Below, piece by piece: positions 25,764-64,000 of a stretch of DNA of 64,000 nucleotides. Within the stretch, counting starts at the first letter, position 1. Every line of letters begins with the position of its first letter. The stretch lies in contig CM060734.1 in the NCBI GenBank assembly GCA_030704615.1, forward strand, positions 8,556,001 to 8,620,000, in the 5' to 3' direction. Source of the DNA: Takakia lepidozioides. Its lineage: Eukaryota > Plantae > Bryophyta. Position numbers and translations under genes: made by a program. Under the pieces are notes generated by a model. The model had not been told where the DNA came from, made no database searches, and saw only the letters and a list, made by a program, of their open reading frames with translations.

Positions 25764-25904
25764 TTCAAACTTGCATCCCTGCCGCCTGCCACTTACCAGC
25801 AGCCGCGAACGTGCGCACTGTTCTCCTGGCACGTTGTCGATCGTGTCTTGTACTGCGGCGCGTTTCTTGCATATTCAGAAGCGTGTCCTTTGTACTGTAT
25901 AGGT

Positions 25905-28216: not shown

Positions 28217-28424
28217 GTCTGCAATGCCTCGAAAAGAGACAAGGTTTCACGTCGTGTAGGTGTCACGGAGAAGACAATATAAGTCTGCAATTCCTCGAAA
28301 AGAGACAAGGTTTCATGTCGTGTAGGTGTCACGAAGAAGACAATATAAGTCTGCAATTCCTCGAAAAGAGACAAGGTTTCATGTCGTGTAGGTGTCACGA
28401 AGAAAACAATATAAGTCTGCAATT
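28174..28424. repeat. 66-bp tandem repeat, about 4 copies
   Basis: caaggtttcaNgtcgtgtaggtgtcacgaagaagacaatataagtctgcaattcctcgaaaagaga repeated. Confidence 0.9.
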
Positions 28425-28958: not shown

Positions 28959-29228
28959 TCATGAGAGCAGTTTCTCTACATTGTCCAACCCCCGCATGAT
29001 ATACTGGGCACACTGCATTCGCTGCCCAAGTGCAAACTTGAAAGTAAACCAGTCCTTCGTGAAAGGTGTTCCTCTCTCTGGCTTTGCAGTGTTAGAGACA
29101 TTTGCTCTGACTTTTACCCACTCATAAAACACTTGAATGAATGACATGACGTAAAAGCCACACTCCCAGCTGAATGGTTGTTGGGGCACATCAGGCGCGT
29201 GGAACTGAAATGCTTGGACAATCATTTG
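28959..29228 (-). pseudogene. C-terminal half of the Ulp1/C48 peptidase
   Basis: QMIVQAFQFHAPDVPQQPFSWECGFYVMSF contains the oxyanion Gln and catalytic Cys motif of C48 proteases. Confidence 0.8.
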
Positions 29229-30559: not shown

Positions 30560-33500
30560 GTGGACTTGAAACGGTAGTACATTAATGTCTCTGTGACTAA
30601 ATGCCGGCCTTGTGACCTCGTGTCCTTGTTTGTTTCGACCTGAAGCGCTTGCTTCAGGTGAGGTAGTGCATTGGATTTAGTTGGAAAGCTTGGGGCCTTT
30701 CCCTCTTTAGAATATGCCTACACGGGCCATTCCCTGCAACTCCCTGGAGTGTGATCTCTGAATGGTAACAAGCGGACTCCTACCGCTTGGGGGCAGCCCC
30801 TCCGCCCAAATTGGGCAGTCGTATGCTCTGTCTAGCATACTCCGCACTTGGGCTCGGGTTGGTTCCTGTGCTTAAACTTATGGCCTGCGAAAACAATCAA
30901 AAATTTAGCTCCTATCAACATCAACACTCCTCAGGGTGATCCCTGGGAATTGGTTACTTATGCCAAATCTAGGGCTTCATGTATAGTTTTTGGAGTGAAT
31001 CCCAGGATGGACGATGTGTCCTTTAAAACTACATGCTCTAGCTTAGGCTTGGATTTCATGACTAATGGTACCATCTCGAGACTTGATAACAAGGGTACGT
31101 TGAAGGTTGCAATGACCAAAAGTGCTTCTAATAGAGTCCCGCATCAATTCAATCTCAAAGAAGTTCGTCCCTTGACTGGCTGGAGAGCGGTCTTAGACAT
31201 TGGTGATTCAATGGGGCGCTCTAGGAAGACAACCAAGGGCAACAACTTCAACTTGAGAGTTTCTAATCGGTTTGATGCTCTGGATGAGGTTGAATCCAAA
31301 CAGCCAGAAGGACAAGATGCCCCTGCGTGTACGGAACCTGAACGTCCTGAATCTGAAGGATTTGGTACTCTGAATGGTTTACCAATCCTCAAGGTTTACA
31401 CAAGACGAACAAATTCTATACACGGGGTAATTGTCCCCAAGCCGTCAGATGGACAATCTGTCCCTAAGTGTGCAGAGCCTGAACGTCGTGTAACATTGTC
31501 CCCAAGCAGTCTGACGGACAATCTGCCCCTATGTGTGCAGAGCCTGTGCGTCGTGTAACTGAAAGATTTGGTACCCTGAATGGTTTACCAATTCTCAAAG
31601 TTTACAGAAGACGAGCAAAATCTACACATGGGGTAACTGTCCCCCCTTCGCAGAACGGTTGGCCGTCCAGGAGCAATCACAAGCTACCTAGACGACAAAC
31701 AATTCACACGCAAAGGGCTGGCTTGCGGCTGGCCACTTTCAACTTCTCCGGGTTGACCAACCAAAGGAAACAAGTTGAAGTGGGACAAGTTCTTCGGACT
31801 AATGATATTCATATCTGTGCTAGGCAAGAAACATGGGAAACGTCGGATAAACTGGTTGGAGATGTCATTGGTTATAAATGGGCAGGTAAGATGTGTACTC
31901 TCAAGACAGCCTCTGCCAAACGCGGTCAAAAAGGGGTCGGATTCTTTGTCCGTGATTTCTTGTTTGACAATTGTGAAATTATCAACAAGGGTTTGAGGTA
32001 CGAGCATAGTATCTGGCTAAAACTGAATTTGAAGGGCGGCATGAGTACAAAGGACCTCTTTGTTGGTTGTGTTTACATGCCCACAGAGGGGACCCTTAGT
32101 GCTGACGCAGACAAGGCCCTCGAAGATGTAAAGCTGGACTGTGCTTTGTTCCTTGCCAAAGGTCAGGTGGTACTATTGGGGGACTTCAATGCCCGGGTGG
32201 GCAAAGGGATCCATCAGGACGATATCATTGGACCTTTTGGTGAGGACGAGCTGAATTCTAATGGCAGACGGTTAATTAACTGTCTAGAAGAGCTTCAGCT
32301 TTTGACCTTGAATAACAGGACAAGAGGTGACCAAGTGCAGTGGACTCGTGAGAAACCCCAAACTGGGGAACGTTCCATTGTGGACTATATCATAATGGAC
32401 AAAATTTTGTTCCCCCAGTGTGCCAATGTGTTGATCGACAGAACTGATATTGGTACCTCTGACCACTTCCTGGTTTGGACTGAGATCAAAAGGTGTTTTC
32501 CCACCACGAAGAGATCTGTGAAACGTTCGATTCGGAAGTGGCGCATACAAAAATTCCACAATTCTCCCTCATTTTGTCCAATCGCTCCAAGAACTTCAGT
32601 CACGCTCTGTTAACGCAAGAAATGAAGTCGAAAGAGCAGTGGACTCTTGGGAGAGTTTCGTTTCCTCCATGGCTGACAAGATCATTGGGAGGAAACTAAT
32701 TGTCTGCGGTAGAGCAGTTAATTGGTGGACTAATGAGATTAAACTCAAGATAGCTGAGAGACGAGCCCTCTATAAAGAGTGCTGCAATTTGGAAACCAAC
32801 AGAGAATTGTGGGCGAGGTACTACCAGCTCCGTAAAGATATCAATCAGCTTGTTAGGTCTCAGAAGAAATTATACTGGGACAAGTTATACAGTGAAATAA
32901 ACTCAAACCACCATGGTGGTAATGACAAGAAATTCTGGTTGGCCCTTCAACGTTTGTACAAACCGAAAAACGGTCAGCAAGTACAAGCGCTGAAGACTAC
33001 TAAAGGTAAAGTGGTGACTTCATCGGTTGACATTGTCAAAACCTTTGAAACTCACTACAGTATCCTTGGCAGAACTTCTAGGTCTAACAGTGAGGGGTCT
33101 TCTGCTGAATGGAGGGACACAGTTGGAAAAACTGTTCCTATGATTCAAAACAGCCCTGATGAACTGGAGTATATTTCAATGGCTTATAATGCTCCCATTA
33201 GTTCTTCTGAGATTGTGGAAGCAAATGGATATAAAGCTGGTGGACCTGATGGTATTGTCAACGAGCTTATCAAGCACGGTGGCGATCCCATGATAGAGGC
33301 CCTAGTTCTCCTCTTTAACCTTATCTGGAAGACTGAAATGATCCCCTTTCGCTGGCGACAGGGGGTCATTGTCAATCTATACAAGAAGGGTGACAGAGAA
33401 GAACCGGGGAACTACCGTGGCATCACGCTCCTCAATGCTGTTGGCAAGACATTCTGCAGAGTTATAAGTACTCGTCTCGAGGTTGATCTGGAGTCTAGAG

Positions 33501-35250
33501 GTTGTTTCCACGAAGGCCAAGCTGGCTTTCGGCGAAACAGGGGCTGTGTGGATCATATCTTCACTCTAAGCAAGATTATCCAGGGAAGGAAAAAAGAAGG
33601 GAAACCCACTTATGTCTTTTTCCTGGATGTCAAAAAGGCTTATGACACAGTGTGGAGAGATGGCCTGGTTCCGCCTCTGGTCTTGTGGGATCAAGGGAAA
33701 GATGTGGAGAGTTGTCCACAACTTGTATGCTCACACCAAAAGCTGTGTCACTGTTTAACGGACAGAAGTCCAACTTCTTTGACATAGACCAAGGTGTAGC
33801 TCAAGGATGTACTCTCTCCCCTCTGCTCTTCAATGTTTTCATCAATCAACTCCTCGAGGATGTGGAAAGTGAGGGATTTGGGTTAAGGGTGGGTGATACC
33901 ACCGTACCAGCCCTTATGTTTGCGGATGACTTCGCAGGCATAGGGGAGACTCCAACCAATCTCCAGGAGTTGATTGATTGCGCGAAGAGATACTTTGATC
34001 TTTGGGGCTAGAGGCTAATGTCAGCAAATGTGCAGTGGTAGCATTCAACGACAGAGGAGAGGGAGGAAGTGATCTTAAGTGGCAGTGGGGTAGCCAAGAG
34101 ATCCCGGTCCTCCCTTCCTACACTTACCTGGGCGTTGAGTTCTCCTCCAATTGTAACTGGGATGCACATATCCGGAAAGTTGTTCAAACTGGCAAGGGCA
34201 AAGCTCTGGGGCTCACTAAATTTTTCCACTGCAGAGGGGTCAACTCTGAGGTTAAGAAAACCATGCTTTGTCGCGTTATTAGACCTGCCTTGGAGTACGG
34301 ATCTGCTATATGGGTTGATAACTCCAACCAGGCTAAGTCTCTAGAATCCATTCAAGTGGGGGTGCTTAAGGAGTGTATGTCAGCATGCTCCAAAACAGCC
34401 AATGTGGCTGTTCGGGGTGAGTTTGGCATTCCGTCCTTAAGCTCCCGACGAGATGAATTCAAGGTCAGATGGTGGGGTCAGCTGCAACATATGCCCAACA
34501 CCAGATATCCTAAATTAATCGACTCTATATCTTGGAAACAGGACCGCCCTGTCAAACAGGCTAAGTCCTGGCAGAAGAGAGTAGAAGAGATCCTCAAGGA
34601 CCTGGACCTGGATCCGCAAGTCTTGACCCTGCTGGATAAATCTGACTTAGAGGCTGTAGTGTCCTCAGCCATGTCTGTTGCCATGAGATTGTCTGATGAA
34701 AATGAAGTTAGGCAGAAAACTTCCCTGAACTTGTTTCCAGTCTGTGACATGGGGGAGGACATCTTGGATGACCTCAAGGGTCTACCCACTCTCGGCACTA
34801 GACTGAAATTTAAACTCAGGGCAGGAAGCCTACCTTTGAACAGCAAACAGAAGCAGAGAGGAAAGGGAGAGTGCAATTGCCCGTTGTGTGGGCAATCTGA
34901 AGACAGTATTCATTTTCTGATACACTGTCCGGGGTTCTCTCACCAAAGAGACGCTCTCTTCAAATCTATTAAGGGAATTGTGCCTGTACCCCTGTTTACC
35001 AACTTTGAAAGTCTCGAGGCTGAGCCAAAAGCCCAGGCCCTCCTGAGGCCTAGTTTTTGGGCAAATCACACACAGCAGATTGATGCTTGTGTGAAGGGAT
35101 TTCTAGAGGATATCTGGAAAACCCGGATTAATTCTTTATATGGAGGTAAGTCTTACTACCAACGTCAGCCCCTGACAGAGGTAGGTTCTGTCCCTTTTGT
35201 TCCCGCTCAAACTGGGCGCGGGGTCAATGGCCACAAGGCTACGGCAAACA
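30560..35250 (+). mobile_element. APE-type LINE (non-L1; RTE/RTEX-like), frameshifted
   Basis: Endonuclease (TFNFSGL, QETW, LLGDFNARVG, IVDYI, SDH; ~31720-32490), RT (NYRGITLL, QAGFR, QGCTLSP, MFADD) and a C-terminal CPLC...H...HC knuckle. The 5' boundary is approximate and no TSD was found. Confidence 0.88.
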
Positions 35251-35337
35251 ACGTCTTATGAGTACAATCTCTCCCCCCATTGAAATCCATGCATACATTA
35301 ACCTGACATGCAGGGCTCAAAATAGAATAGGGAGTAC

Positions 35338-38494: not shown

Positions 38495-41400
38495 TTTCTT
38501 TTTTCTTTTTTTTTTCTTTTGGGGACAGTGGCCCTGTTTCAATCTTTATTGGAGAGTGTCGAGGAAAAAATAACCTCGATAAGAACACCATAGAGGCAGA
38601 AAAAGGAGTCACCGCCCCAAGAACCAAAAAACTGAATAAGGCCCGCTGCAGTAAGGAAGCTACAACGGGAAGCCGGAGAACTAAGAGAGCAGGGCCTGCG
38701 AAGGGATTCCTGTTGCAGAGAAGTGAAATCTGCCTAACAGGAAGTACATCATCAGAGAGAAGAATCGCTAGAGAAGAGAAAAGAGATTAGAAAGCAGAGC
38801 TAAAGGCTTCCTCTCTTCCTTTTCGAAGTCTCGAAGGATAACTGAGCTTTGGGCTTTCCCTTTCTGAAGCTACGATTGTGCCTCCAGTTAACGTCCGCGT
38901 CCTCACCCTCAGCAGGGGATTGCATCGCGCTAGCAGAACTCCCAGCATGCCGGGAGGTGGTCGTACCAGACAATCTTTGAATCAGAAATTCGGGTGCAGA
39001 TCCAGCTTCCTTTTCCCCAAGTGTTGTCAAAATCAGCAAGAAGCTGTTGTCGCCTTCCTTCAGAGCATCTGGGAAGCGCTGCACATAAAACTCGCCAAAC
39101 CTTACGAGCTTCAGACAAGGTGTCTGAGTGAACCCCGAACAAAACAGCCCTAACACTTGGCTGCGCACCTTCGTACACCCTTGAACATCTACCCTTCCAA
39201 ATGTTCCATAAGACGTGGCCTCTAATAGTGGCCCACATTGGACAATGAGACCACATCTGGCCCCTATGGAAATTTAAAAGCAAGAGAGGAGGTGAGAGGG
39301 GGAGCCCAGGCTTCCATGCAGAAGTAAACTTAGCAACAGCAGCCCACACTGCCATGGCGAATCTGCAGGTTACCAAACAATGCTCGATTGTCTCGCTGCA
39401 CGGTGAGTCACAAATAGGGCAAGGGGAGGGAGAGTCTGAGGAGAAGGAGAGAACTGGAAGTATCCAATTGACCAGTTTCCAAAGAAAACTATTTATCTTG
39501 GTCGCCCTGTGTTTCCTCCATACGTCAACCCAGATAGACTTCCAATCCTGTGGGATGTCAGCAAGGTGTCTCCACTTTTTAACCCATTTGGCAGTGAACA
39601 TGAGGGGGGGGGTTGAGAAGAGAATACTCCAACTTCACCGTACTGTTGTTTTCTAGACATCCACCCCCATTCTGCTGGGTCAAATTGAAGAAGCTTTAAG
39701 GGAGCAGAGAGAAACCAACGGAAAGAGGAGGAGTAATGGGTAATAATAGGAGGGGCAGGGTCAACATTTCCACTTTGCAAACAGAATACCCGAATTGGGT
39801 AATGCATAGATTCAAGAGAGGAAGAGAGCATGGGGTAGAGTAAGGTACCATTGTGGGTGGCAACAAATTTCCAGCCACTAACCATGTCTCCATGCCGAGA
39901 GATAGCATAGAAGGCAAAGAGCACCGAATTCTCAGATCCCCCCAACCAAGTGGGCGGAGAGCGGAGATTACCAGGGAGAGAACAGAGGGAGATCCATCTC
40001 GGAGGAATTTGAGAGACAATCATGTCAAAAGAGAGGGTCTGCGAGCGGATATAGAACCAGAGACTTCAGACAAAGAAATGAAGTCATCAGTGTTCCAAAT
40101 GTGAGAGAAGTGAGAGAACCCCCCTTGCTCCCAAAAGGACCACTTTCTGTGACAAGGGAGCAAAACTTCTGAATCCGAGTTATAATTGGCAAAGAGAGGC
40201 TGTCGAAGAGCTTCTTCAGCATTACCTGGCATACGTTGAAATAGCTGAGATCTCATCTTAACCCATGCAGCCCAGATGGACTACCACGCCTTGGAACCGA
40301 GAGATCTACATGTAAGTGACCTTTTACCTTGTACTATCCAACGAAGGGATTGAAGCCATGGGCCCGAATTGGGGCTGGCATCAGTAATGTGCCGACGAAC
40401 CAACAGGCTCCAGGGAGAGGAGATGTGCGTGAGCACCCTAGGAACCCACTTTGCCAAGAGCGTTGTAATCTGCGATAGTGGGTCAATCAAGCCCAACCCT
40501 CCATATTTCTTTTTTTGGGTAACTTGGGCCCAAGAGACAAGAGAACGCCTGTTGGGGGAAGCTGGGGTAGCACCCCAAAGGAAGTTTCTTACCATGGCCT
40601 TAATTTGTTTGATGATGGCGGATCCCGGAGACCAAACGGAAGCAGAGAACCAAGAGCAGGCAAGAATTACTTGATTAGCGATTAAGGCCCTCCCTGCAAT
40701 GGATAAATGCTTCGAGCTCCAATAGGAGAGGTGCTTCCTGATCTTAGCTAACACAGCCTCACATCTTTGCAAGTCGGAGAGACCATGGCCTACAAGATGA
40801 CCTAGGAGGTTGTGGGCCTGCCCATCCTGGAGCCATCTGAGGCCAATATCCTCTCCCCAAGAGTCACAATGTGTAGCTATTGCAGAAGGAAGAAGCTTGG
40901 ATAAGATTGCCACCGTTTTTGACCAGTTCACCTTAAGACCAAAGGCAGTGCAGAAGGAATCAAGCGCATCTAGAGCAGAGGCAACATTGGAGGAGGAGGA
41001 ATTGTCAATGAGTAACGTCGTATCATCAGCATAGAGAGAAGATTTGATAGAGGAGGGAGGTGGAAGAGAGCGGGGGATTTTAAGCCCTTGAATAGCTGGG
41101 TTGCTGTCAAGGAGATGACTCAAAGCGTCAGCAGCAAACAAGAAAAGGAAAGGAGAGAGCGGACAACCTTGACGAACTGATCTAAAGAGCGGGAAGAAGG
41201 TAGAGAGGGCACCGTTAAGAACCACCTTACTCGAGGCAGAGGAGAGAAGAATAGAAACCCAAGATAGGAAGTTCCCCTCGATACCGGAGTTGCGCAGAGC
41301 ACCAAACAAAAAAGGCGAGTCGACATTGTCAAAAGCCTTTTCAAAATCCAGCATAAGCAAGGCCAGGGGCTGGTTGGACTCCTGCGCAGAGAAGAGAGCC

Positions 41401-42833
41401 TCGTTTGCCAGTAACACATTGTCCAAAATCATCCGGTTCTTCATAAAGCCAGACTGCTCTGGGCGATTTGTGAAGAAGAGGCTGCAGACGTAAGGCCAGC
41501 GCTTTTGCTATTATCTTATAGGAGGAATTCAAAAGCGTGATCGGCCGGTAATTGGTGATGCAATCTCTGTCATCTTTTTAAAAAATCAAGGTGATGACTC
41601 CTTGAGATATTTGAGAAGGCATTATCCCTTTCTCAAGGATATCATTCGCCATATTGAGAAGGTCATCCCCCACAGTCCCCCATAATACTTTGAAGAACTC
41701 AACCGGTAATCCGTCTAAGCCCGGCGATTTATTGGAGCTAAGAGCTTCAGTCGCCAATAAGAGCAGGGGGCATTCAGACTCAAAAGATCATCCGGAGACA
41801 GAACTTTCGGGACACATGCCAGGACTTTACTCCTATGCAACCTCATATTTGGGGAATCCACTCTCTTCCCAAATAGGTCTGTAAAGTAAGAGGCCGCCAC
41901 AGAGGCCATAGATTTAGGAGAGGTGTGAAGCTCATTCGAGGAGTCCCTTAAAGAACAGATAGATGTGGCAGTCTGCCTCTGTTTGACTTTCTGAAAAAAG
42001 TAAGCCGTCATTTTTTCCCCCTTCAATGACCAATTTACCCCGGCTTTCCTTTTAAGGTTGAGCTCCTTCTAGCTACGCAACTCAGCAAGGTTTCTTTTTG
42101 CGGTATTGAAGGACTCAAAAAGTGACAGGACCCACTTCACCATTCTCAATCAACCATTGGCAATGCGAGATGCATTTGATGAGAGCTCTGTCCCTCTCAG
42201 CCCTACTTAAAGCAAGGGCCTTTGAGAGGGATTGAGCCGCTTTCCTATCAGCGGAAATCTTTTCAAGAAACTTGACCGTAGGAGAAGAGGCGGAGACCCC
42301 TGCTTCTTTCCACACCGAGGCAAGGTTCAAAACCATGGCGGGGATAGAGAGCAGAGAGGGGTTTAACTTAAAAAAACTACGACCCTTGGCATGAAGCCGT
42401 GGAGGCCTGAATTCAGCTGAGATTAGCGCGTGATCAAAATCAGGGAGGATGGGAGGAAGAGGTACAGGCTTGCCCATGCTGCAGAGATAGGAGAACAGTA
42501 AATCCTATCGAGCCTAGCCATGCAAAGATCAGAAGCATCACGGTTATTGGTCCAAGTATATCTGAGAGCCCTCTGCTCTGGAACAAAAATATCAGATAGA
42601 CCAACTGAAAAACATAGCCTGTCCCAGGCAGCAAGCTCATCACCAGAGATAGAATGAGAAGAGGACCCACGACAGTCACTAGAAGACTCTACCATATTAA
42701 AATCCCCAGCAAGAACCCAAGTGGATACCAGAAGACTCTACCATATTAAAATCCCCAGCAAGAACCCAAGTGGATACCAGCGGACATTGAAGGATCTTAG
42801 AGTGGAGCAAGGTCCAAAGCTCAATGCGCTAGG
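38495..42833 (-). mobile_element. L1/Tx1-clade LINE, 3' portion of ORF2 to the poly(A) tail
   Basis: Endonuclease C-half (WVLAGDFN, RLDR.Y, DH), RT (LDFEKAFD, SVRQGCPLSP, YADD) and zf-RVT (CPIC..ETIEH...C). AATAAA and an A-rich tail at ~38495-38550. A 49-bp tandem duplication lies at 42681-42780. Confidence 0.9.
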
Positions 42834-48269: not shown

Positions 48270-48655
48270 AACACGAGCTCACACGAGCTCACACAAACTA
48301 ATGCATATATAAAATCATCACTCAGATACAGTCAAGCCAAGTGCACCCCATGTCATAGGGAATCTACACTACGACGCCATAGCTAGACGCCGTGGCTCAA
48401 CTCGAGAAACATGAGCCTCCTCGCGCTTGCCGTGGAGATAACCACTCCAGGGGCCTAAACATGCTTTGACCCCTAGATTGACACTTCGGCCAAGTATCAA
48501 TATATAAAACTAGTTATTTCGTAGCTACTTTCACAATGGTGGTAAATTAACTTGACAGCTGTCGTGCGCATACATATCACTACACAACTACATCGTTGTC
48601 CACATCACACAACACATATGCACACCACACACACTAGTTTGTCACTAGTCTACCA
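48270..48655 (-). mobile_element. Diverged LTR remnant of the Gypsy family at 54002-62150
   Basis: Shares ggctcaactcgaga and ttaacttgacagctgtcgtgcgcatacatatc.ctacacaactacatcg with 54002-54436. Confidence 0.75.
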
Positions 48656-50050: not shown

Positions 50051-50823
50051 TCTTGCATACCTTTTTGTCTACACATGAATACAAACAAATAAAATTTACG
50101 CATTAGAAAGAGAGAGAGAAGATTAGCGAAGACATACACGAAGAAAAAAACAAATAAACAAAATCGATAGGGAATGAAGATCTTACAAAGCGGGCGGCGA
50201 ACGATTTGGCTCCTCCCGGGCTAAATTTGTGCGTGGAATCCCCCTTCTCTAGGCGAAAGGTGGCTGCCTCACGACCCGAGCAAACCTCGGCTTTTTTTCC
50301 CATCAGTCTCCTCGGCAATGGGACCTCCCACGACTCCTAGGCATCTGGCTTTTTAGGTTACCAGGCGGTGTCCCCCTTCTCAGTCTCCATGGCCTGTCAT
50401 GTGAGGTTATTTTTTCCTCATCATCCATATATCTAGCCTATCTCAGGCCCTCTTCTGAAAAGTAAAAAATAAAAAATAAATTCCAGATCAGGATTATAGA
50501 CATGTTCCAAAGGTCAGATTTTTTGGATTGATTTGGATCAGAAGTAATGGCCATTTGTGTTGCAGTAGGTCATGTTGGTGTTTATGAATATGAAATTAAT
50601 CCAAAAGGCAAAGTACAGATGAGCGAGGAAAAAATAACCTTGAAATGCCAAGAGGGGATACCACCCCGGAACCCGAACTAAAAACCAGGCCTAAAGAAAG
50701 ATACGAAAGGAGGGTGGTGTAAAGAGTGGACAAAGAACTACTTGGAGGCATAAAAAAGTTGGGCCTTAATCTTTGTTACGACCCTTTTTGTGCCTCCAAT
50801 TAACCTCCCTATCATCATCCCTA

Positions 50824-51198
50824 TCAATACATGAATCGAGACGTTCGTTTTGTTTTGTTTGTTTGATTTGTAGAGTTGCGATGTCCCAAACTGCTGGGCC
50901 CCACCTGAGTGCTTGGTACCGTTGGAAAGCCCTCCATGAGGACAGGTGCACCGACTTGGTCTCATGATTTTTGGACCAGTGGTGTGGGAGATGTTGAATT
51001 TCAAGTAGTTTTGGTCTCTGGAAATTCACAAAAAATAGCAAAGTGGGCTTTCCTGGGACAATGACCGGAGCCTCGACATGAGAGATATCAATGAAAATGT
51101 CTTCGGTTCAAATCAAGTCGTGGTCCTGTTAAAAATGATTAGACTTGGATTACTTAGATGACATTGGACACTTGGGCCAACGGCACAGGCTACCCTAG
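50824..51198 (+). mobile_element. Complete 375-bp non-autonomous Helitron (same family as 9392-11322)
   Basis: A|TCAATAC...tgggccaacggcaca (hairpin) ggctaccCTAG|T, with no TSD. Reverse-complement homology to ~10700-11080. Confidence 0.78.
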
Positions 51199-51339
51199 TG
51201 AGTTATAGGGCCTCCGTCTCCTTTCTTTTAAAAAAAGAAAGCAAAAAAGAAAGCAAAAAAGAAAGAAAATTGGGAAGCAAAAACTGCTAATAAGGCAGTT
51301 ATGGGATGAAGGAAAAAAAAAATTTCTTCCTTCCTCCCA

Positions 51340-52519
51340 TACTTGCAGCTCTCCTCTGATACCTCTATCTTTTTTGGGTCTCGCCTGTATCATTCTTCCT
51401 CCAATAACAATCTCTTCTTTGTTCAAGTTTTGCCTCTCATGAGGCTAACAGATGTCAATAAGGATGACATAGGTCTCTCTGTTCTCCCCTGGCTGTCTGG
51501 AGACAACATTCCGCCAAATGTGGGAACCAAAAAAGGGCGTCCTTATATGGTGGCCACATACGCGGCTGGGATGAAGTTGATCGAGGCAATGATGTCTTCG
51601 CAGAAGTACTCCCGAAAGCTCGAGAAATCCCACTCCAACGAAGATCTGCAAGTTATGCCAGCAGCGGCAGAGGCCTCTCCGTCAGTTTCTCTGGCCCCTA
51701 TGGACCTGGCTCTCTCTTCTCCACCAGTGGTGAGCCCTGAGCATCTTTCTATTCCCATGTGCATCTATTTTTCTGAATATGGTGCGCCCTCATGCTCGGT
51801 CCTAGCTGATGACAGCTCTGATCCTCTCTCCTTCGATCTTCCATCCATGGCCTTCCCCAGGCACTCACCGACTTCTTCTGCCCTATCTACAATTGCAGAA
51901 TTCATGGGGGTTCCATCTCTTCCCTGCCCTCTCTTCTCCAGTATTGATAAGAACTCCTCTTCCCTAAATGTTTGTTGTTCTCACTCTGACCCTGGTTCGG
52001 TGCCAATTTGGATTGTGGAAACGCCAGAAGTTCCTGCTCCTGTAGGATTCAAGTGGATCTCTTCTCCGCTCCCTCTTGACCCTGAATGAAGTTCGATGTT
52101 TCTCCTTTATAGCCATCAACTCGTGCTATCAACACGGGCTTGCTTGATATTCCTCCATGAGTTGGTGCCTGTCCTCTTGGAACATTAGAGGCATAGGCTC
52201 TGATGCCTCTACGCCCAAGCGTCGCAAACTTCAGCACTGGGCTTCCTCTCTTATTTCTGCTAATGGTATTTTGTTTTTGCAAGAACATAAATTAGACTCT
52301 AAGAAGATTAGTGCTCTTGGTCACTCACTTTGGCCTCTCTCTTCTTCTTGGTGGAACCCTACAATTATGGATACAAGAGGGGGTACTGCTATTCTGATTT
52401 CCCCATCTATTGCCTCTTGCTTCCTCAAAGTCGAAACCTGGATGCCAGGAAGGGTTCAATGAGCATTTACTACCTCTTCCTCTATCTTTGGCTCTTGCGC
52501 TTTCATAAATGTGAATGCC
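51340..52519 (+). mobile_element. L1 fragment: end of ORF1 and N-terminal half of the ORF2 endonuclease
   Basis: MSWCLSSWNIRGIG...ILFLQEHKL...GGTAILI...FINVNA from 52157. Confidence 0.8.
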
Positions 52520-53090: not shown

Positions 53091-54001
53091 GATGCCTCTC
53101 TTACAGTAGTCATTATTCACCATTTCGACTCAAAATCATTGAGAAGGTCAGCAAACGGAAACAGAAGAGTACAAACGCCAGGAGTTACTAGACTCCTATT
53201 GTGCCATGTTGGTGCATAAGATAAGAAGTCCCATGACAGAAGACGACAGAACTTGCAGACCTCATTGAACAACACATGAATCCCACATCGACTACTTAAA
53301 AAATCCCAGGAAATTGTCATTCACAGGAGGAATCCATACGTCACCAAAATCATTTATTATTCTCGAGGGGAACAAGTCTTAGCATCTCTCCTCTCAATAC
53401 CATTCTCCCCAAATGGATTCTATAAGAAAGCTCCAAGTACAGGACCACCCCCGCCTGCACCCTTTAAACACCCGTAAGAATGTTCATCATACGACAATGT
53501 CCCATTCATTTACCTATGCCGCTGTGTTGATATCGACAACACGAACGACGGAGTCGTCAAAAAACATGTCCAGAATGAGGAGTGGCGCGGTATTTGTCTA
53601 GTCACCATTGCCGATATCTTGATGGAGATGACACACATGAAGATACAACACATCTATATTCATGAGGTTCGTGAAAACATGCAGATATTCCAGGCCAAGT
53701 GGGAGCTCCTCTACAATATCGTTGTGATATTCGCGTACATCCAACACAAACCTGTTCCGATTCTCCCTCAGTATCAGCAAAATATTCCCGGGCCCAGAAA
53801 AATGAGTCAGCAAAAAGGTGAATTCCGTGGTGAAGCAACTCCTGTGAAATTATGTTCGGCGGATCAGTCAGACTAGATGGATTACTTGGATGCGACAGAT
53901 TTCTGTTATAATAACTGTCGTGCGCATACATATCGCTACACAACTACATCGCTGTCCAAACCACACCACACATATATGCACAATAAAGTAGTCTGCCACA
54001 A

Positions 54002-54436
54002 TGATAGAAATCCAACGAACACATTGTTGACACAAAACATGAAAACCAAACCATCACTCTTAGAAATAGTAGTCGAGTCAGGGGCACCCCAAGCTATGGG
54101 GACTCCACCCCACAACAACCTGTACCCCTACATAAGCACACTCAAATCTAAACGCATGCAGGAGCTCGGTCGCGCAGGCTCAACTCGAGAGAGATGAACT
54201 GCGCGACTGCCGCTCTCGTGAAGATAAGACGGACCAGGTGTCAAACTAAACTTGACACCTGATTTAACACTTGACCTAAATCCAAGTGTTAAATACAAAT
54301 AACTAGTTTTATTCTAGCTGTTTTCACACTATGCTTATTTAACTTGACAGCTGTCGTGCGCATACATATCGCTACACAACTACATCGCTGTCCAAACCAC
54401 ACCACACATATATGCACAATAAAGTAGTCTGCCACA
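54002..54436 (-). repeat. 3' LTR (~435 bp)
   Basis: Starts TGTGGCAG directly after the PPT AGGGGGGCGAT and ends TATCA. Homologous to 48270-48655 and ~23620-23710. Confidence 0.7.
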
Positions 54437-54696
54437 ATCGCCCCCCTAGCTGGTGGATAGGTCCCTCTACCTCCAGATAGCTACAAGATGTAATAGCCAC
54501 AGCCGTACTAAGTCCTCTATCACTGTCCCTATTGTACTCAAACTCTATAGACCAAGAGGCCGGGTACAAGAGTAGTCCCATCGTTAGTCGCCATCTTGCA
54601 ATCTGTGAACTTGAGCCAGGACCTCGTGTGTTCAAGGTCTCCTAGTAGCTGGGCCTTGAGTTTCTTGTTAGCTTTCCATGGTTGTATCCACTCCCA

Positions 54697-54924
54697 CTAT
54701 CCAATGCAATGTGGACATAACCAATCCCCATCCGGAACCATCTCAAGAGGTGGAGTCAAGCATCCCATATGCCAACCTCTAGAGCATCGATCGCACACCA
54801 GCATGGTGGCTGCCCCTTTAGCAGACCCACACAACATGCACCTCAAACCTGCAGATATCACTACCAGGTTTGGGTCAATCCTGCCATCGACATTCGGAAG
54901 GTGACATGGCGCACAATTACGCAC
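54697..54924 (-). CDS. PHD finger at the integrase C-terminus
   Basis: C4HC3 pattern: CMLC...LVCDRCSRGWHMGCLTPPLEMVPDGDWLCPHC. Confidence 0.9.
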   Translation of the reverse strand: MRNCAPCHLPNVDGRIDPNLVVISAGLRCMLCGSAKGAATMLVCDRCSRGWHMGCLTPPLEMVPDGDWLCPHCIG

Positions 54925-55015
54925 ATGGTCCTTCCAAGTTATGCATCCCGACCCTCCAAGACCAAGACGCCTGAGGGCAAGACCTCTCGAACCCTCAAAA
55001 TAACACGTCCTGCAG

Positions 55016-56081
55016 TCACATCCAGGGTTGTAGGAGCAGTCTGCTGCAGATAGACATAGTCACCAGGGTTGAATCTCCGAACCCCAGGACGATAGCCCCA
55101 CCACGTATGGTAGCATACCTCAACGTATCACGGTGTTGTGCAATGGCAAGGTTCTCGAAAGCCATGGGCATGACTCTCTTGAACAACTCTGCACGCTGCT
55201 CACATGCACGTGCCCACACGTCCGGATCGTCAAGGTTAAGAACTGTAGCAGCTTCTTTGCGAATGGATGTAGGCAAATCCGGCTCTCGGCCAAAGAGAAG
55301 AAAGTATGGTGAGAAGGAGGCAAGTGATGCTTGCTTGTTGAACCTGTAGCCCATGGCTAACCAGGGTAACTGAAGGTCCCAATCTCCTAGGTGTCCCTTC
55401 TGCAAGCCATACTTGCGCAAACCCCTCTTTACTGTCTGAACAACTCTCTCTGCCAAGCCATCGGCCTCAGGATGATCCCGAGAAGTGGTGCGGTGGTCTA
55501 TCAAGGCCTTGTCACACAAAGCCTGAAACTCCCCCAAGAACTCTCTCCCTTGGTCCGTGAGTACCTCAGCTGGAGCACCGAATCGGCTAAGCACACAATC
55601 CAGGAATGCATACGCAGCTCCCTCACTAGCCTTATCAGGCAATGGAACCAATTCAATCCACTTGGAGAAGTGCTCCACCATCACCAACACGTACTTGTTG
55701 TGGGCGCATGGTCAGTGGCAACGGCCCTGCGAAGTCAAGACTCCACCTGTAGCCCAATCCCATGATCGGAAGAGGGTGCAATTGTGGAGTAGGGGCGTTG
55801 AATGAAGCACGCACCCTGTCACACACCATGCACCTAGCCACAAATTGTTGCACCTCTGTGTGCATACCACGCCACCAATACTGCCCCTGCAGTAGACTAT
55901 GAGTGCGTCGCACCCCAAAATGCCCCAACTCCTCATGGGCATGGCGCACTAACCGTGCCCGCTGTATTGGGTGAGGCACAATCCTCACTCGACCATCCTC
56001 CCACACTCGGAGTAGGTGTGTCCCCTCCCACTTGAACCTCTTGGCTCGTTGTAGGATCCGATCCCTCTCCTTGGCAGTCAA
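55016..56081 (-). pseudogene. Gypsy integrase (H2C2 zinc domain and DDE core)
   Basis: HEELGHFG...YWWRGM...CMVC; LDFAGPLP; EHFSKWIE; LTDQGREF; DGLAERVVQTVK. Frameshifted. Confidence 0.92.
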
Positions 56082-56316
56082 GTGGCTGTCGTGTCTCCAG
56101 TGCGGAGGTAGTCCAACACAACTGAATCCTCATGTATATCTTTGGCGCCACCTTGCTCATTGCTGGCCTCAGGGTCCTCAGACACTTGATCTACAGTCAT
56201 CCCTGTTGCAGGTCCAACCTGGCCTTCCGCTGCCAAATACACAGAACAGATGCATGCCATCCGGGCACCATCTCCTCGTCCGTCTCACCATGCCACCGAG
56301 CTCCAGTGTCATCCTG

Positions 56317-57682
56317 CTAGCTCGTGCATGGATTGTGACTCAACCCATTTGCATTGCGATTGACCAAACCCGGTCGATGCACTACCTGGAAGTCATACTC
56401 TTGAAGGATGAGTGCCCACCGTGCAAGCTTCCCCGTAAGCTTGTCTGACTCCATCAACCACTTGAGTGGTTGGTGATCCGTGACAAGGGTGAAGAGATTG
56501 CCATATAGATAGCACCTGAAGTGTGCCACGGCCCACACTGCAGCTAAGCATTCTCCCTCATATGAGCTATACTTAGACTCTGCAGCATTGTTCGAGCGGC
56601 TAGCATAAGCCACTACGAACTCTCTTCCCTCATCATCCACCTGTGTGAACACCGCTCCAAGCCCCAGCATGCTCCAATCTGTATGCAGCTGAAAAGGATG
56701 CCCCCTGATAGGTTGTCTCAAGATGGGCGCCGAGGTCAACCTCGCCTTGAGCTCTTGAAAAGCTTGTTCTTGCTCATCTTCCCACTGCCACTCCTGGTCC
56801 ACCTTGGTCAGCTTGGTTAGAGCCTTTGCAATGGCACTGAATCCCTTAACAAACCGTCTGTAATAGTTTGCTAACCCCATGAAAGCTCGAACTCGGCTCA
56901 CATCCGTGGGGCGTGGAACCTGTGCAATGGACTCTACCTTAGTCTGCTGTATCCCCAATCCTCCAGGATATATCATGTGACCCAGATACTCAATCTGGTT
57001 GTGGAAAAACTTGCATTTGCCCGGATGTAACTTCAATCCGTGCGTCCTTAAGCGCTCAAATACCCCCTGAAGGTGTCTCTCATGCTCCTCCACCGTAGCA
57101 CTAAAGATGATGATGTCATCTATGTAGCACCGAGCAAACTCCACCCGTGCTAGAATCGTGTCCATGACTCTTTGAAACTCAGCGGGAGCGTTTTTAAGCC
57201 CAAATGGTAAGAACCGCCACTGGTATAGGCAATCCTTCCCGTGCTCATTGATCCCCCAGAATGCCGTCTTTTGCTTATCCGCCTCCTTGATCGGCAACTG
57301 GTGATATCCGGATCGTAAATCCAACGTGCTAAAGACCTTGGAATGCCCAATGGCATCAAAGATCTCCTCTAGTGTTGGCATGGCATACCTATCGGACTTG
57401 GTCTGACGATTTACAGGCCGATAATCACCGCACATACGTCTCTCTCCGTCAATTGCCATAGACATCCTTCTTAGCTGGCATCACTATGGCTGAAGCATAC
57501 TCTCCACCAGAGAGCTCCACCAAACCTGCCTCCCAGAGATCTTGAGTCCTCATCTGAATCAAAGACCTCTCCATGTTACTGTATCTATAGGGTCTCCGAA
57601 AGATTGGCGTGTCAGTGGCCAACTCAATACGGATCTCTTGACCCTTCAGTGCTCCCAAGTCCTTCAAACTAAGGCAAAGCAA
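56317..57682 (-). CDS. Gypsy reverse transcriptase and RNase H
   Basis: RMCGDYR, LDLRSGYHQ, PFGLKNAPAEFQ, YIDDII, LHTDWS, TDHQPL. One frameshift near 57460. Confidence 0.95.
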
Positions 57683-58039
57683 TTCTGTAAGCCCTCAGGA
57701 ACCGCCGTATACGTCGTCTCTCTCCTCCGGTGACAATGGGTCCAATGTCAGGCTCCCAATTGTCCTCCGTAACTGCAACCTTAAGTCCAGTGGGCTTAGA
57801 GGTAGAGGACGCGTCCCGTGGTTGCTATGCTGCAACCTCTGAACAACCCCCTTCCTCCATCACAGGCTGCCTTGGCTGCCAACTCCCTTTGGACCTCGAG
57901 CACCTCCCACGTGTGCCATGGATGTCTACCCCTTGGTCCTCACCGGCTCGCCCCCACTCGCTGCCTGTACCATCTCGGTAGGCAGAGAGACCATGAGGGG
58001 AGTGCACTCCGCACTCTACGTTGCTCAGCCATAGCCAAG

Positions 58040-58990
58040 CTGATAATCCAAGTCAAGCAATTGAGATCCATTGCTTGCCCCAACACCTGACGTCGTGATG
58101 CCTCAGAAAGAGAAGGCACCGCCGTGGTCCCAGTGGAAAACCCCATAGCCCGCTCTCGCTCGTCGGCATTAGCTCCACTAACTGCTGCAACTGAGCATCC
58201 CACAGGAGGCCAGGTCCACCATCCCGAAAGCATGAGATCCTGGAAGCTGAGCAGTGTAGGTAATGCTGCTCGTGGTTGACCCACCCTGTTGACCACTGCC
58301 AAGGGCGAACGGTCATCGTGTCTCACACGTTGAGACTGTCTCCCTGTGTCCAAAATGCCATCCACGGTGAGGTGTGCTGGCCGCTGCACCCCATCAAATG
58401 CACGCTTGAGTAGTGCGGGTGGCATCAAGTTAGTCCACCAAGCCGTGGACGATGAGCCCAAGACCCCATTGCAGCTGCATCCAGTAACACTGCTGACCCA
58501 AGCCACGACCGGACTTGATGCACACTGGCCATCACCCTGGCCCGAGAATCACCCATCAGTGGTACATTCTCCAAGATGTATGCTGGAGATACAGCTTGAT
58601 GAAGCTGCAATCAGCGCAAAATCCGCACCATCTCCCAAACAGACCCGTCCTCGAGTCTCGCAATCCATTGCCATGCCCGCTGATGAATGCCCTTGGCAGG
58701 GCCAACCTGCCACTACCAGTTCAAGGAGCCAACCTGCTCCAAATCCTGCGCCCCCAGCAAAGAAATGTCTGCTGGCAAGGCTTGTTGGTATCCACGAACT
58801 GCAGACACTGGCAACAAGTCAGGGTATTGCTGTACCAACTGAGCAACATGGCGCAGTGAGACGCGTCGTGCAGTCTCATCCCTCTCCACATACAGGTAAC
58901 GTCGAACTCGTACACCTGCCTGTAGCACAGCAGTCAATCCGGTGCTGATCCCGCCAAACAAGTCCAGAAGGCAAATGCCTTCATCTGGAT
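58040..58990 (-). pseudogene. C5 cytosine DNA methyltransferase domain (DNMT3/DRM-like) within pol
   Basis: Motif I LLDLFGGISTG, motif II YVERD, motif IV VVAGWPCQG (58691-58720), motif VI YILENV, motif VIII LDAAAMGSWAHRPRL..TN, motifs IX/X ERERAMGF...RRQVLGQAMD. Canonical order, split by frameshifts. Confidence 0.9.
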
Positions 58991-59087
58991 ACTGCCACAC
59001 AATAGGTGTGGTATCCAATGGTGACAACTGAGGTGGTCTTGGTGCAATACACCGCACTCTCCTCCTCTCCTGACGGAACAAAAGCCT

Positions 59088-59912
59088 CTACCCAGGCTTG
59101 TTGCACCCGTCGATCAGCAACCTGCTGCAAATCCTTGCTCGTACCCCACATGGAGTGTGAGCAACCATGGCAGGCAACTCCGCCATACCATGCATGTCAT
59201 CCTGCTCTGCTGGAGGTGGCACATCCTCTGCATGGGCATTGCCTTCCAACAACTCTCCAGGCCAACTAACTGCAGCTGTAAAGGCGGTTAGTGTTGGCAT
59301 CTTGCCCCGCTGGGCAGCCGCTATACCCCCAATGAATGTCATAGGGAGCTGTGCACGGCGACCATCGCCTGACTGCCATCCACGCCTGTAGGATGCTGAC
59401 TCCTCCCAAAAATCCAAGGTGAAGCCCATAGGGTATAACACTGCCCCACCAACGAGGACATCGTAAGAGACTGCGTCTGTCACAATGGCCTTGGCTCGCA
59501 TTACTGAGCCATCGATAGGATGATCCGGCTGCAGTCTAATGGCCAACTGATGCCGTGTCATGCCCCGAGCCTGCTCTGATCCTCCCAGAGATGTCTGTAT
59601 CTAGAAAGGACAAGGCTCCATATCCGCCTCCATGAGGCCCAAACCTGCAATAGCAGCTCTGCCTAACATCAGTGGCTGAGCTCCCGAGTCCAACAAGACC
59701 CGCAGTGGCCGGTACTTCTTGCCTGCCGGTCCACTCAAAGTGAAAATGCCTCCCTGGTTGTCTAACAAGACAACTCCAGGTGTCACCATGGCGCGCTCAA
59801 AGGCTGGCCTAGCTGATAGCTCCGTCAACCTGACAGTTGCAGCTTGCCAGGGCGCAGCCGTGGCAGTCTTGACCCTCAAATCCGAGGATCCCTCTGCCAC
59901 TACACCTTCCAC
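59088..59912 (-). pseudogene. Retroviral-type aspartic protease
   Basis: RVLLDSGAQPLM and YDVLVGG motifs; in-frame TAG at 59601-59603. Confidence 0.8.
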
Positions 59913-60155
59913 TAACTCCGCAAAGATGAAGTGACCTCCCCACTCTCACAGAGTGTTGCTGCTAGTCGGAACACTGCAGCTGGTCTCACCCCCGGCGTCG
60001 CAATCATTGTTGCCGAGAACAGTGGGGCCTGACACACAGAGGTGGCTGCCCCCAATACACACCGCCGCACTAGCCTTGGCAGCAGGTGTCAGTGCTGCAC
60101 GTGTAGCTCTCCCAATGGCATAGAAACCTCCGCCTCGGTAACAGTCGGGCGAGAA

Positions 60156-61721
60156 CTAGGTGCCATGGATGGCGTTGACATTGTCTCCGCCAAGGTGAAC
60201 GACTGAGGCAGCCTTGCCTGACGGCTTGCCTCCCCACGTTGTGGATCCAACTCCCCCTGCACCTCGTGGCTCAGGAACTCGTGCTGCTCCTCGAGTCACG
60301 GCTGCAGCAGACTCCACCTGCTCTAGTGGTAGTGCTGCTCCGCACATGAATCCCATGCCTCCCATATCTCCTCCCTCAGGAGCAGGAGGTGGACCATCCC
60401 GCCTGGGGCCGGTACCCCCCTGAGCTATAGCCATGACAGCGAGCCTCTGCTCTAGCTGCTGAAGCCGATTGGCCATGCCTTGGTCAACACCCTGACCTCC
60501 GCGTCCTTGGCCATGTGGAGCTTGCCCTTGGCCTGCACCTCGTGCCCGACCACCTCGTCCTCTTTGGGCTGGTCCACCTCGCCTCCGGCCACCATTGTTC
60601 CCTGGAACTGGCCTGGCGCAACTCAGGATGCAAGTCATAACACTGAGCATCTCCATACCCATACTTGCCACAATGCCCACACTGCAACTGTGCAGGCTGT
60701 GCTTGTGTCGGCCTTCTGCCACTCTCTGGGCAATCTCTCTTGACATGGGGTCCTCCACATGTCCAACATATCACCCCTGGTTGCTGTTGGCCTGCAAAAG
60801 ATGCCACGGGCCTCTGCACCTGAGGTCCCCTGTAAGCTCCATGGAACTTGGGCTGGGCAACCTTGCCCCCCTGACCACGCTGTTGAGCGGTTCCTTGTGC
60901 CTGTGGGCTGGCAGCTACTGCCTCGTGTAGGCATGTCCTTGCCAAATCCAATGGTAACAACTCGCTCCTCTACCATGTTGAGCTCAATCCGCTCAGCCAG
61001 CAGAAACACATCTGCTAATGTGGGTTGGGCTGCTTGTAACAGGGTTGCATCTCGCACCCTTCTCTTGAGCTCCTTATCCAAAATTCCATACCAAAACTGG
61101 ATTGCCTGAGCTTCAGTAACCCCTTGGGTCACACTTATCAAGCGCCTCATACGAGTGTACGCCTCTCGCAGGCTCTCACTGGGTTTGCGCTGGAAGTCTT
61201 GCAAACTTCGCAGCTTCTCTGTCCGTACACCTTGGTAGTTTCTCCGCAACTCCTGGAAGAACTCCACCACCGGTTGAATCTAGGCACATGTGTTGTAGTC
61301 GTGGCAGGAGGAGTAGTAGCACCTTTGAACTGGTACCACCTGCAGAAGTACCAGCACTACTTGCTCCACTACTAGTGCTGGCAGTGGGAGCTATTGGTAC
61401 TGACGCAGCTACTGGTCGCGTCGTGCCTCGAGTAATGGAGACGTAGTCAGGTGACCAATACATCCTCCACTCCTCAATCTCTGCTTCATGTCCCCGCCTG
61501 AACTCGTGGTAATCGTCCATAGGCGGGCCTTCCAAATGCTGGAACAGTCCCTTCCACGCCATGAATGGGGTGAATAGCTGTGGATTGCGCATCTGCTGCA
61601 AATCACACCAGCTGTCGAACTCCTGGATAAAGTCATCCAAACTCGATTTGCCCACAGCTCCAGAGTACCTACGAGGCCCCTTGGTAGCTCCATACATCTC
61701 CTCCATGTCGTCCCACAACAA
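60156..61721 (-). pseudogene. Gag with zinc knuckles
   Basis: Retrotransposon gag-like helical region (LRSLQDFQRKPSESLREAYTRMRRL), CWTCGGPHVKRDC and a degenerate CGHCGKYGYGDAQC. Confidence 0.8.
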
Positions 61722-64000
61722 TGGCGAATGAACTGCACACCTGTTGATGAACCTCCGAGTCTGTGTCTGACTCTACAGTAGTTGAGGTGGCGGTGAAGGT
61801 GGTCTGAACCGAATACCTCGTCTTGTGAACCCACTCTCACTGTACTGCTTGTAGCCGTACTCCCTCAAACCCTTGGGTAACTCCGTAATGACACTCACAA
61901 TGTGCACCTCCTCCACGTGACACTATAAGTCTCTAGTACTAATCTAATAGTGACACGGGTGGGCACCTGTTGCAGTCTAAGGGTCATATCCCAATGGCTC
62001 AGGGCACCTGCATCCACCGCAAGAACTCATATGGTTGGCTGGTCATCAACCCAGCCTCACCATAGAAACACTGGTGGTCTTGCTGGTCATCACTCCAGCC
62101 TCACCACCGACAGCATACTCTAGGATTGACCGGTGATCAAATCCGGCCTAATCCCTATGAAAGCAAGCGCCCACACAAAACCAACATGGCGCACAGTCAA
62201 GCATGCATGTGTTGGGGGGGATCCAAACACAAGAAATCAAAACATCAACACCCCCACACCAAAATCCAGCAGCAACGCTGATCCTGCAGAATATCCCAGC
62301 CCAAACCCCCGGACTGACTGCCTCCACCAAGAGAGGCTTTGGCAACTACAAGTACAAGGTAATGAAAATAGTACAGAGATGGAGGGGAAGAATAGAAGCC
62401 CGACCCAGCAAACTCTAATCCTGATCTATGCTATCAACTGCCAGACTTCTCTCAAAGTGCCTTGCTCTGCATGATGGTAAGGTGTAGGAGGTATATCTAT
62501 GTCCAGAAACCTGCCACTAACCTTGTCCCAAGCTACAGTAGCTCGCTCTAACCACCCTCCTCCTCTTTTTGCCAAGTAGAGACAAAGCAACACTCTGCTA
62601 TCTCCCGCTCACTGAACACTAAGAAAACAAAGGTAGAGTTTGATAGTCTCTCAACTCGAAAGCTTTGAGACGGTTGCGGGTGTCCTCATTGCGAATGACT
62701 GTATCTCCTTCAAACAGAACAAACTTGTCCTCGCTAATGAACCCCCGTCGTGGTTGCCTTGTGCAGAGCGTGTCCGGCTGCAACGCTGTCTGATTGCACA
62801 AACTTGTGTAGCTCCTGCTCCTTGCTCCAGTACACCCAGCCTTGTGGCTGAGTACACCCCTTGCCTTGTGGCTGAACACCTTGGTCCCCGGGCTGTCTTT
62901 GGCTGTGTTCCAAGCCTAGCTTTCACCCACTTTGGTATTTCACTTACAGCTGCAGAACTGCTGGCTCCAACAGAGTTCTGACTGTCCAAAGCGATATTGA
63001 GGCCCTCAACGCCAACTACAGCAGTCTGTTGTCTACTGCTAATGCCTGACTCCCAGTATGCAATCAACTCGTCCAACTGTTCTCCACTCAAATCAGTCTG
63101 AGTTCCTTGGGAAACATAAATCATGTCCCCTTGTGTGCACAGGCTAAGAGAAGAGACCTGCCCTTCAATTACGTCCTCATTTCCCCCAGCCATACAAGGA
63201 GTACATCCACAGATTTGTCTCTCATATAGACCAGCACAGGTTCTAGAAACAGAATTGTGGATCTTTCATGGCACACTCACACTCTAAAAATTCCATAGAT
63301 TTTTAGTAGAGTCCTAAAAATAAAAACCAGATCTAGATTGGTAGATTTCCCCTTTCTGCAGCTATCCCCTCAAAAACTGGGTCAAACAGAGTCCATTTGA
63401 CAAAGATATGACCAATTTGGCTTTAAATCATTTAAATTAGATCAAAATGCCCTGTTTATTTTTTATTTTTTTTTTTTTTTTTTTCTAAGGTTTTCAAATT
63501 TAAAAATTTAAAGTTACACCCAAACTATCTGGTAACTGGTTCCCGGTTCCCTACGCTCTATATGGTTTCCTAGGTTCCCTGGCCACGTGCCCTATAATTC
63601 ACACCTTGCTCCAGTCTTCTGCATACCGAGAGTGAGAGAGAGAGAGAGAGGAAGGGAACTGTGGCACTCAGTAGTGTCTTGTTGTGAAAGAGAGTGGATT
63701 CCGTGATTGCTTGCAGGCTTGCGCACCAAGAGAGGGGGAGGAAAGACATGTTTATGGACATGTTTATGGACGCCATGTACAGGCGAGGGGTCACTCACAG
63801 TCTGTTCGAGGCCTTGGTGGCTAACGATAAATCACTGAGGAGGATTACCAACGGGAAGCACTGGACTTTGTGCTGGAGCTTGCGGGTCCCCGGCCCATTC
63901 CAATTACGGGGGAGAAAGCCCTGGCTCCTGAATCGCCCGTCTATCCCCAGCGTAGCTCGGCTCCGCTGTTCCCAAACCCGTCGTCTCCATCCTGCAGCTG

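Follow-up and report, generated by a model that had tools for sequence, protein, structure and literature searches.

Retrotransposons that carry their own cytosine methyltransferase have been known since 2018, when dinoflagellates and one alga were reported to have them. Another such element occurs in the moss Takakia lepidozioides, in a window of 64,000 nucleotides (GenBank assembly GCA_030704615.1, contig CM060734.1, positions 8,556,001 to 8,620,000 of the forward strand; window coordinates are used throughout). Near the right-hand end of the window, a high-copy family of Gypsy-type retrotransposons is represented by a decayed copy that carries a DNMT3-like domain of its own. By translation and Pfam search its parts follow one another on the minus strand in the order Gag, protease (PR), DNMT3-like domain, reverse transcriptase (RT), RNase H (RH), integrase (IN) and PHD finger; for the parts that it named, this is the order stated in an earlier note made from the letters alone. 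Pfam matches were obtained for RVT_1 (E 2e-33), RNase H (E 1e-35), Integrase_H2C2 (E 1e-16), rve (E 7e-13) and PHD (E 2e-11), and weak ones only for Retrotrans_gag (PF03732, E 2.5e-4) and Asp_protease_2. The copy is frameshifted, as the note had also said, with many indels and with the DNMT motifs spread over different reading frames. It is dead: at least 12 single-site indels between 55095 and 62319, at least three of them within the DNMT, are absent from a large share of the other copies. The limits given in the note, 54002..62150, were too narrow; the 3' end is at 53916, and repeat-level depth continues to at least 63500, so that the 5' end lies beyond 62150. Two open reading frames (ORFs) in or beside this 5' part, 62651-63265 (-) and 63688-63999 (+), had no Pfam match. 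The region before gag measures ~1.5 kb in a related, moss-type family and at least 1.7 kb in the window element.

The methyltransferase between protease and RT was confirmed as a C5 enzyme with motifs I to X in canonical, non-permuted order and with intact catalytic PCQ, ENV and RxR residues. On the minus strand of the window, using several reading frames, these are motif I (DLFGGISTG, 58964-58938), II (58892), III (58769), IV (AGWPCQG, 58710-58690), VI (ILENV, 58577), VIII (AHRPRL, 58457), IX (58161) and X (GQAMD, 58080-58066). The five in-frame DNMT pieces between 59600 and 57943 did not match Pfam when searched alone; the domain of intact relatives matches PF00145. In sequence and fold it comes closest to DNMT3: a sequence search with the intact relative P0002 ranked DNMT3A (E 6e-12) above DRM2 and bacterial enzymes, and all listed structural matches of its model were DNMT3A, DNMT3B or DNMT3C, with DNMT3A best (E 1e-18). 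The model had a pLDDT of 94 when built from 86 sequences (11 sequences gave a pLDDT of 43). The catalytic C, Q, E, R and R are kept in at least 90% of the 86 relatives. Comparison of the window with 75 moss-type loci gave pN 0.22 and pS 0.72 for the DNMT, close to the values for gag (pN 0.20, pS 0.87) and protease (pN 0.24, pS 0.83); the DNMT is thus under purifying selection between families, like gag and protease. The domain is probably catalytically active.

The family is not confined to this copy. In read-depth run X1, summed depth was 627,000-1,036,000 over the DNMT bins, 951,000-1,096,000 over RT and 613,000-762,000 over gag; the flank had 403-1,146, and two difference-free contigs in it stood at depths of 64 and 84. 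Depth falls at ~53900 and is still high at 63500, and run X7, from a second study, gave the same profile. Four such runs were used, three of them from one sample, and summed depth is not a copy number; it indicates a very abundant family in which the DNMT is as common as RT. A one-off insertion of the DNMT segment, one of the findings by which the earlier note would have been refuted, is contradicted by the agreement of DNMT and RT depth, and the domain is a fixed part of the family. Joints clustering at GATC-containing sites in run X4 look like proximity-ligation products and were not used as evidence. A protein search with the first DNMT piece returned 65 proteins, many of them 60-80% identical, with members in Marchantia polymorpha, Calypogeia fissa and Sphagnum. 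The same search showed that bryophyte gene models labelled as DNA methyltransferases are in many cases pieces of transposable elements (TEs).

How the enzyme is expressed was addressed at the junction between DNMT and RT in 80 metagenome loci, all of them, like the window copy, decayed. Fifty of the 80 loci span the end of the DNMT and the start of RT; the two domains share a frame in 40 of the 50, which rejects a programmed frameshift after the DNMT, and a stop codon stands at one position in 39 of the 40. Among 57 loci examined, 53 could be anchored, with TAG in 36, TAA in 15, and TAC and GAG in one each. Repeated insertions were then merged (81 sequences including the window, giving 65 clusters, 47 with the junction), and the codon was TAG in 31 distinct insertions, TAA in 13, TAT, TAC and GAG in one each, and CAG in none; a stop is present in 44 of 47. 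At sense positions the stop fraction reached at most 0.32 across 1,439 positions (19% at CAG codons), so the junction stop is not a product of decay, and C-to-T decay was rejected as its source. The same position appears in intact proteins as the end of a first frame. Uninterrupted ORF1 proteins of 1,280-1,331 aa were found (P0326, 1331 aa; P0327, 1329 aa; P0330), and ORF1 proteins of independent origin end 59-88 residues past the DNMT (these three, P0325, Marchantia P0009, P0016 and P0025, and Calypogeia P0012). The closest intact ORF2 proteins consist of RT-RH-IN-PHD alone (1,000-1,090 aa) and have no common start residue. The continuous PR-DNMT-RT frame that had been expected of intact copies is therefore absent from intact relatives, in which the conserved stop follows the DNMT; bryophyte entries in which it is fused with RT are eukaryotic gene models, and these bypass the stop at differing places. 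The translation of the moss-type family is nearly identical to the Sphagnum protein P0063. That the stop is an inherited lesion of non-autonomous lineages, with RT supplied in trans by stop-free partners, is very improbable: every sampled copy is decayed and C-to-T decay makes stops common, but the same stop and context recur in three families with saturated synonymous sites, no insertion has CAG, other copies have intact versions of both ORFs, and the downstream RT is under purifying selection.

The three families compared at the junction are represented by the window and loci L033 and L006. They agree in 8 of the 9 bases that begin with the stop and in 6 of the 9 directly before it, against 5 of 21 and 1 of 30 bases farther upstream and 7 of 31 downstream. 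The window reads TAG CAA CCA at 57827-57819, as does the divergent locus L033, and UAG followed by CAR-YYA is described as the readthrough signal of tobacco mosaic virus (TMV); in-frame stops are likewise described for SIRE1, MuLV and Tca2 (both in PMC2754532, PMC2194720). The element shares with these four systems, as there described, a single in-frame stop that splits the polyprotein; it differs in that the stop follows both protease and methyltransferase, and its readthrough is only predicted. The CAR-YYA context is found in 4 of 47 insertions, the window and L033 among them. Within the window's own family, the 40 listed of ~890 variant sites include none at 57825-57827.

The junction appears somewhat more likely to be crossed by readthrough than by splicing or from an internal promoter. 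Production of RT-RH-IN-PHD from a spliced or subgenomic RNA, with the DNMT still made together with Gag, is rather unlikely, but it has points on its side: TAG is formally an AG acceptor, a U-rich stretch precedes it in the moss-type family, CAA-CCC is an imperfect readthrough context, the region between Gag-PR and RT is described as spliced in Ogre (PMC6317226), and promoter activity has been described at the Tca2 junction. It is opposed by the place of the conservation, which sits after the AG, in CAA-CC, where acceptors do not require it, and by the Marchantia and Sphagnum gene models, which skip the stop at different places. Neither a strong donor nor a start is shared: scored against the donor consensus, none of 30 shared GT sites reached 6 of 9 in every one of the three families, which also lack a conserved Met after the stop (the first is codon 3 in two moss-type loci and codon 48 in L033). 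The share of TAA among the stops (13 of 44, against a TAG-to-TAA background of 0.16) does not separate a stop from a splice acceptor.

Readthrough, the favored reading, has points against it at the junction itself. The moss-type family, the largest sampled, carries CAA-CCC in place of CAR-YYA (40 of 47 insertions) and has an ATG two codons past the stop. A stem downstream of the stop forms in all three families (single-sequence z -2.46, -0.63 and -1.26), but 78 of 176 control windows fold as well, so that the consensus fold is ordinary against background and a conserved stimulatory stem is unsupported.

The features of the element are collected in Table 1.

Table 1. Features of the window retrotransposon, from its 5' part to its 3' end
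Feature	Position	Strand	Basis or remark
5' part ahead of gag	61833..63500	-	repeat-level depth to 63500; runs towards or past the window end
Gag	60600..61832	-	tblastn with intact ORF1 P0327; frameshifted
Gag zinc-knuckle-like motifs (two)	CWTC 60768, CGHC 60681	-	tblastn with P0327
Aspartic protease	59373..59786	-	LLDSGAQ at 59696-59676; one in-frame stop
DNMT3-like C5 cytosine methyltransferase	58039..58979	-	motifs I-X; no introns evident; several frameshifts
Conserved stop TAG (57827-57825) with CAA CCA	57819..57827	-	end of ORF1; likely readthrough site
RT and RNase H	56320..57694	-	Pfam; YIDD at 57126-57115
Integrase zinc-binding and core domains	55019..56129	-	Pfam
PHD finger, C-terminus of ORF2	54706..54840	-	Pfam; ORF2 stop at 54699-54697
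Split direct repeat B1, ending CGACA	54352..54438	-	88-bp identical pair; junction CA-GC-TG
Repeat A2, starting TGTCA	54003..54349	-	in relatives, it duplicates the left end
Repeat B2, right end of element (..GACA)	53916..54002	-	beyond B2, depth drops to background

The ends of the element are split direct repeats. An identical 88-bp pair lies at 54351-54438 and 53915-54002 of the window, and in loci L063, L060, L036 and L055 the repeat layout A1..B1-A2-B2 is complete. Long loci have the termini TGTCA..GACA and an internal CA-GC-TG junction, the latter shared by the window. The window shows B1-A2-B2; the left repeat A1 was not found in it, there being no match to A2 within 62000-64000. Full-length elements measure ~9.1-9.2 kb, and several end at B1. 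Exact 4-bp target duplications flank 7 of 9 two-ended loci (CATA, AAGG, TACA, TGTT, TACA, TCTC and TGTG; none is NCGN), one of the others being mismatched and one mis-anchored. A DDE integrase thus acts on ordinary TG..CA ends, which are built from split repeats. Five loci (L037, L042, L076, L030 and L027) end at B1 with a proper target duplication and without A2-B2; such elements possibly arise by recombination between the B repeats, or represent a second complementary DNA (cDNA) form. Three known groups were considered and rejected: Phygy (REXdb), described with an NCGN insertion preference (PMC6317226) that the target duplications do not show; Troyka, defined by CG..CG termini and a 3-bp duplication (PMC12440569), which is unrelated; and a DIRS/PAT-like tyrosine-recombinase element, excluded by the rve integrase and the 4-bp duplications. 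Two further traces of such ends occur in the window. At 23625-24184 (-) is the 3' end of a related element, with a PHD finger 77% identical and a B-like repeat ending CACGACA but no upstream pol; this is a truncated or recombined relative. At 48490-48646 (-) a fragment with a B-A junction (..CACGACA-GC-TGTCAAG..) stands by itself; it belongs to a related family and may be a solo repeat.

Among known elements the nearest is KnitGypsy-Dnmt3 from Klebsormidium nitens (de Mendoza et al. 2018, PMC5890265), compared here by its main-text description. Shared with it are the Gypsy domain set PR-RT-RH-IN with a DDE integrase, an intronless, non-permuted Dnmt3-like domain under purifying selection and DIRS-like split repeats A1..B1-A2-B2, and Klebsormidium RTs fall in the RT clade of the window element. 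In that description the DNMT shares one ORF with RT and RNase H and copies are few, whereas here ORF1 closes with the DNMT, ahead of a conserved stop, copies are very numerous and close relatives occur in land plants; a PHD finger is unmentioned in the main text. The window element is best regarded as a member of a land-plant branch that is related to KnitGypsy-Dnmt3 but laid out differently for expression. SymbioDIRS-Dnmt3 of dinoflagellates also bears a retroelement-borne Dnmt3-like domain, but as described it is a DIRS element, unlike the present one with its DDE integrase, TG..CA ends and 4-bp target duplications. Among host enzymes, PpDNMT3b, described as a de novo CG and CHH methyltransferase (PMC6453930), has the same non-permuted DNMT3 catalytic domain; here the domain is intronless and set within a TE polyprotein.

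A search of the full library gave 281 clusters (E up to 1e-30). In 218 proteins with a DNMT match the domain lay after RNase H or before integrase in 74 (with members in Scenedesmus, Monoraphidium and Haematococcus) and after the protease or before RT in 61 (with a member in Closterium), and was unplaced in 83. In a tree of the DNMT (58 rows) the bryophyte-type group had an SH-aLRT of 100 and the after-RNase-H group 98. In a tree of RT-RH (56 rows) a 44-row group (SH-aLRT 92) holds all DNMT-bearing elements, three Klebsormidium RTs, Coleochaete and two Tetraselmis rows, and the window groups with L033, Calypogeia and Marchantia. Both are quick IQ-TREE runs with SH-aLRT support only, drawn from the midpoint and made without host DNMT3s; 8 of the 56 RT rows are over-long, and Klebsormidium is represented by RT sequences only, so that the DNMT tree has no Klebsormidium DNMT. 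The earlier note knew of no land plant in which the combination of DNMT and PHD had been characterised; land-plant relatives were found, and the combination is not rare, being common in chlorophyte Gypsy polyproteins. Literature searches, with Repbase, theses and subscription journals outside their reach, brought up no account of such elements in land plants or chlorophytes, nor of the stop, and two scans of viral_contigs found nothing. Two members of this eukaryotic clade, P0245 and P0505, stand under bacterial names (metagenome bins), likely through contamination.

The nearest solved relatives of the PHD finger are those of CHD4, PHF12, KDM5A/B (PHD1), ATXR5, PHF21A, BAZ2, UHRF1 and AIRE. 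The PHD fingers of CHD4, KDM5 (PHD1), PHF21A, ATXR5, BAZ2, UHRF1 and AIRE are readers of the unmodified H3 tail. The finger does follow the integrase, as the earlier note had it, but it lies beyond the conserved stop and so is not a covalent partner of the DNMT in the manner of an ADD domain. Since it is carried on the integrase, past the stop, it is more likely to have a part in choosing the insertion site than in guiding the DNMT; by analogy with these readers, chances are about even that it steers the integrase to chromatin without H3K4 methylation. PHD fingers are described as a known accessory domain of green-algal TEs (PMC8557442, PMC9940879). Chlamydomonas Gypsy-7a_cRei (PMC9940879) and REM1 (cited in PMC8557442) share the PHD as an accessory Pol domain with a suggested role as insertion guide; the description of Gypsy-7a_cRei lists no methyltransferase. 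Proteins P0428 and P0439 come from Gypsy lineages outside this one; their PHD lies between RNase H and integrase, and neither has a DNMT match. P0439 carries PF05869 in precomputed annotation.

These parts suggest the following course. Because the DNMT lies before the conserved stop, it would be made at the level of the capsid protein, ORF1 (Gag-PR-DNMT) being the main product, and occasional readthrough of the stop would add the RT-RH-IN-PHD part. Once the protease has cut the product and particles are packaged, many DNMT copies would lie beside the new cDNA, which the packaged enzyme would methylate ahead of integration. That such elements methylate their cDNA had been suggested before, in general and for SymbioDIRS-Dnmt3 (de Mendoza et al. 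2018, PMC5890265). The course as a whole, from the Gag-PR-DNMT frame and low-rate readthrough to cDNA methylated by a particle-loaded enzyme before integration, may equally well be right or wrong, and the case for the element's own cDNA as the main substrate of the DNMT is about evenly balanced.

Several observations weigh against this course. DNMT and RT share one open frame in the distant relatives P0074, P0082, P0349, P0358, P0388 and P0390, so that capsid-level dosage is not needed by the clade; since such distant before-RT elements have one frame, the split into two ORFs is a state specific to this branch. The CpG observed/expected ratio of the element is 0.46-0.56, no different from the remaining window. 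The selection test proposed in the note, which gave purifying selection between families, came out near neutral within the decayed moss-type family, where close copies have a DNMT pN of 0.06-0.09 against a pS of 0.08-0.14, as dead copies do. The Klebsormidium domain left yeast DNA unmethylated, a result described as inconclusive by its authors, human DNMT3B being inactive there too (PMC5890265). The last point also favors another role for the DNMT, in trans on host or sibling-element DNA or in binding nucleic acid within the particle, its place before the stop then being an accident of insertion. The position of the domain varies by lineage, after RNase H in chlorophyte-type and before RT in streptophyte-type elements, and a Gag-PR first ORF is described as a known layout (PMC6317226). 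This account is nevertheless unlikely: the catalytic and SAM-binding motifs have been kept throughout the clade, which speaks against a role in structure alone, and the related SymbioDIRS-Dnmt3 domains are described as active in yeast, methylating CG de novo (PMC5890265).

Elsewhere in the window, an RRM-domain glycine-rich RNA-binding gene (PF00076, E 5e-12) and a partial duplicate of it, 84-94% identical and ~6 kb off, lie at 7300-8950 and 12629-14950 (-). Three LINE-type elements or fragments (endonuclease, RT, zf-RVT) are at 30836-35258 (+), 38933-41507 (-) and 52148-52460 (+). A long repetitive region with Gln-rich tandem repeats and ORFs without assignment, 15600-29500, looks like a large DNA transposon, and at 28962-29504 there is a weak Ulp1-protease match (E 0.002). 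A complex repeat family occurs at 9391-11164 and 50819-51199, in inverted orientation 40 kb apart.

Taken most widely, a green-lineage-wide clade of split-repeat Gypsy elements would have kept an active DNMT3 since before land plants, with a leaky stop in bryophytes loading the enzyme at capsid stoichiometry and copies inserted pre-methylated into H3K4-unmethylated chromatin chosen by the PHD finger; this is put forward tentatively, as a possibility that is probably not right in every part. If it is true, the element's DNMT, present in thousands of copies, could have a share in methylating the host genome as well. From the conserved stop, the dosage of the enzyme can be predicted sharply. With its split-repeat ends the family, very abundant in the window genome at least, is probably missed or mis-annotated by standard LTR (long terminal repeat) finders, and the TE-derived gene models annotated as DNA methyltransferases bear on counts of host DNMTs in bryophytes. 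The family is present in Marchantia, a model with genetics and methylomes, so that self-methylation by a transposon, whether as help or as restraint, is directly testable there.

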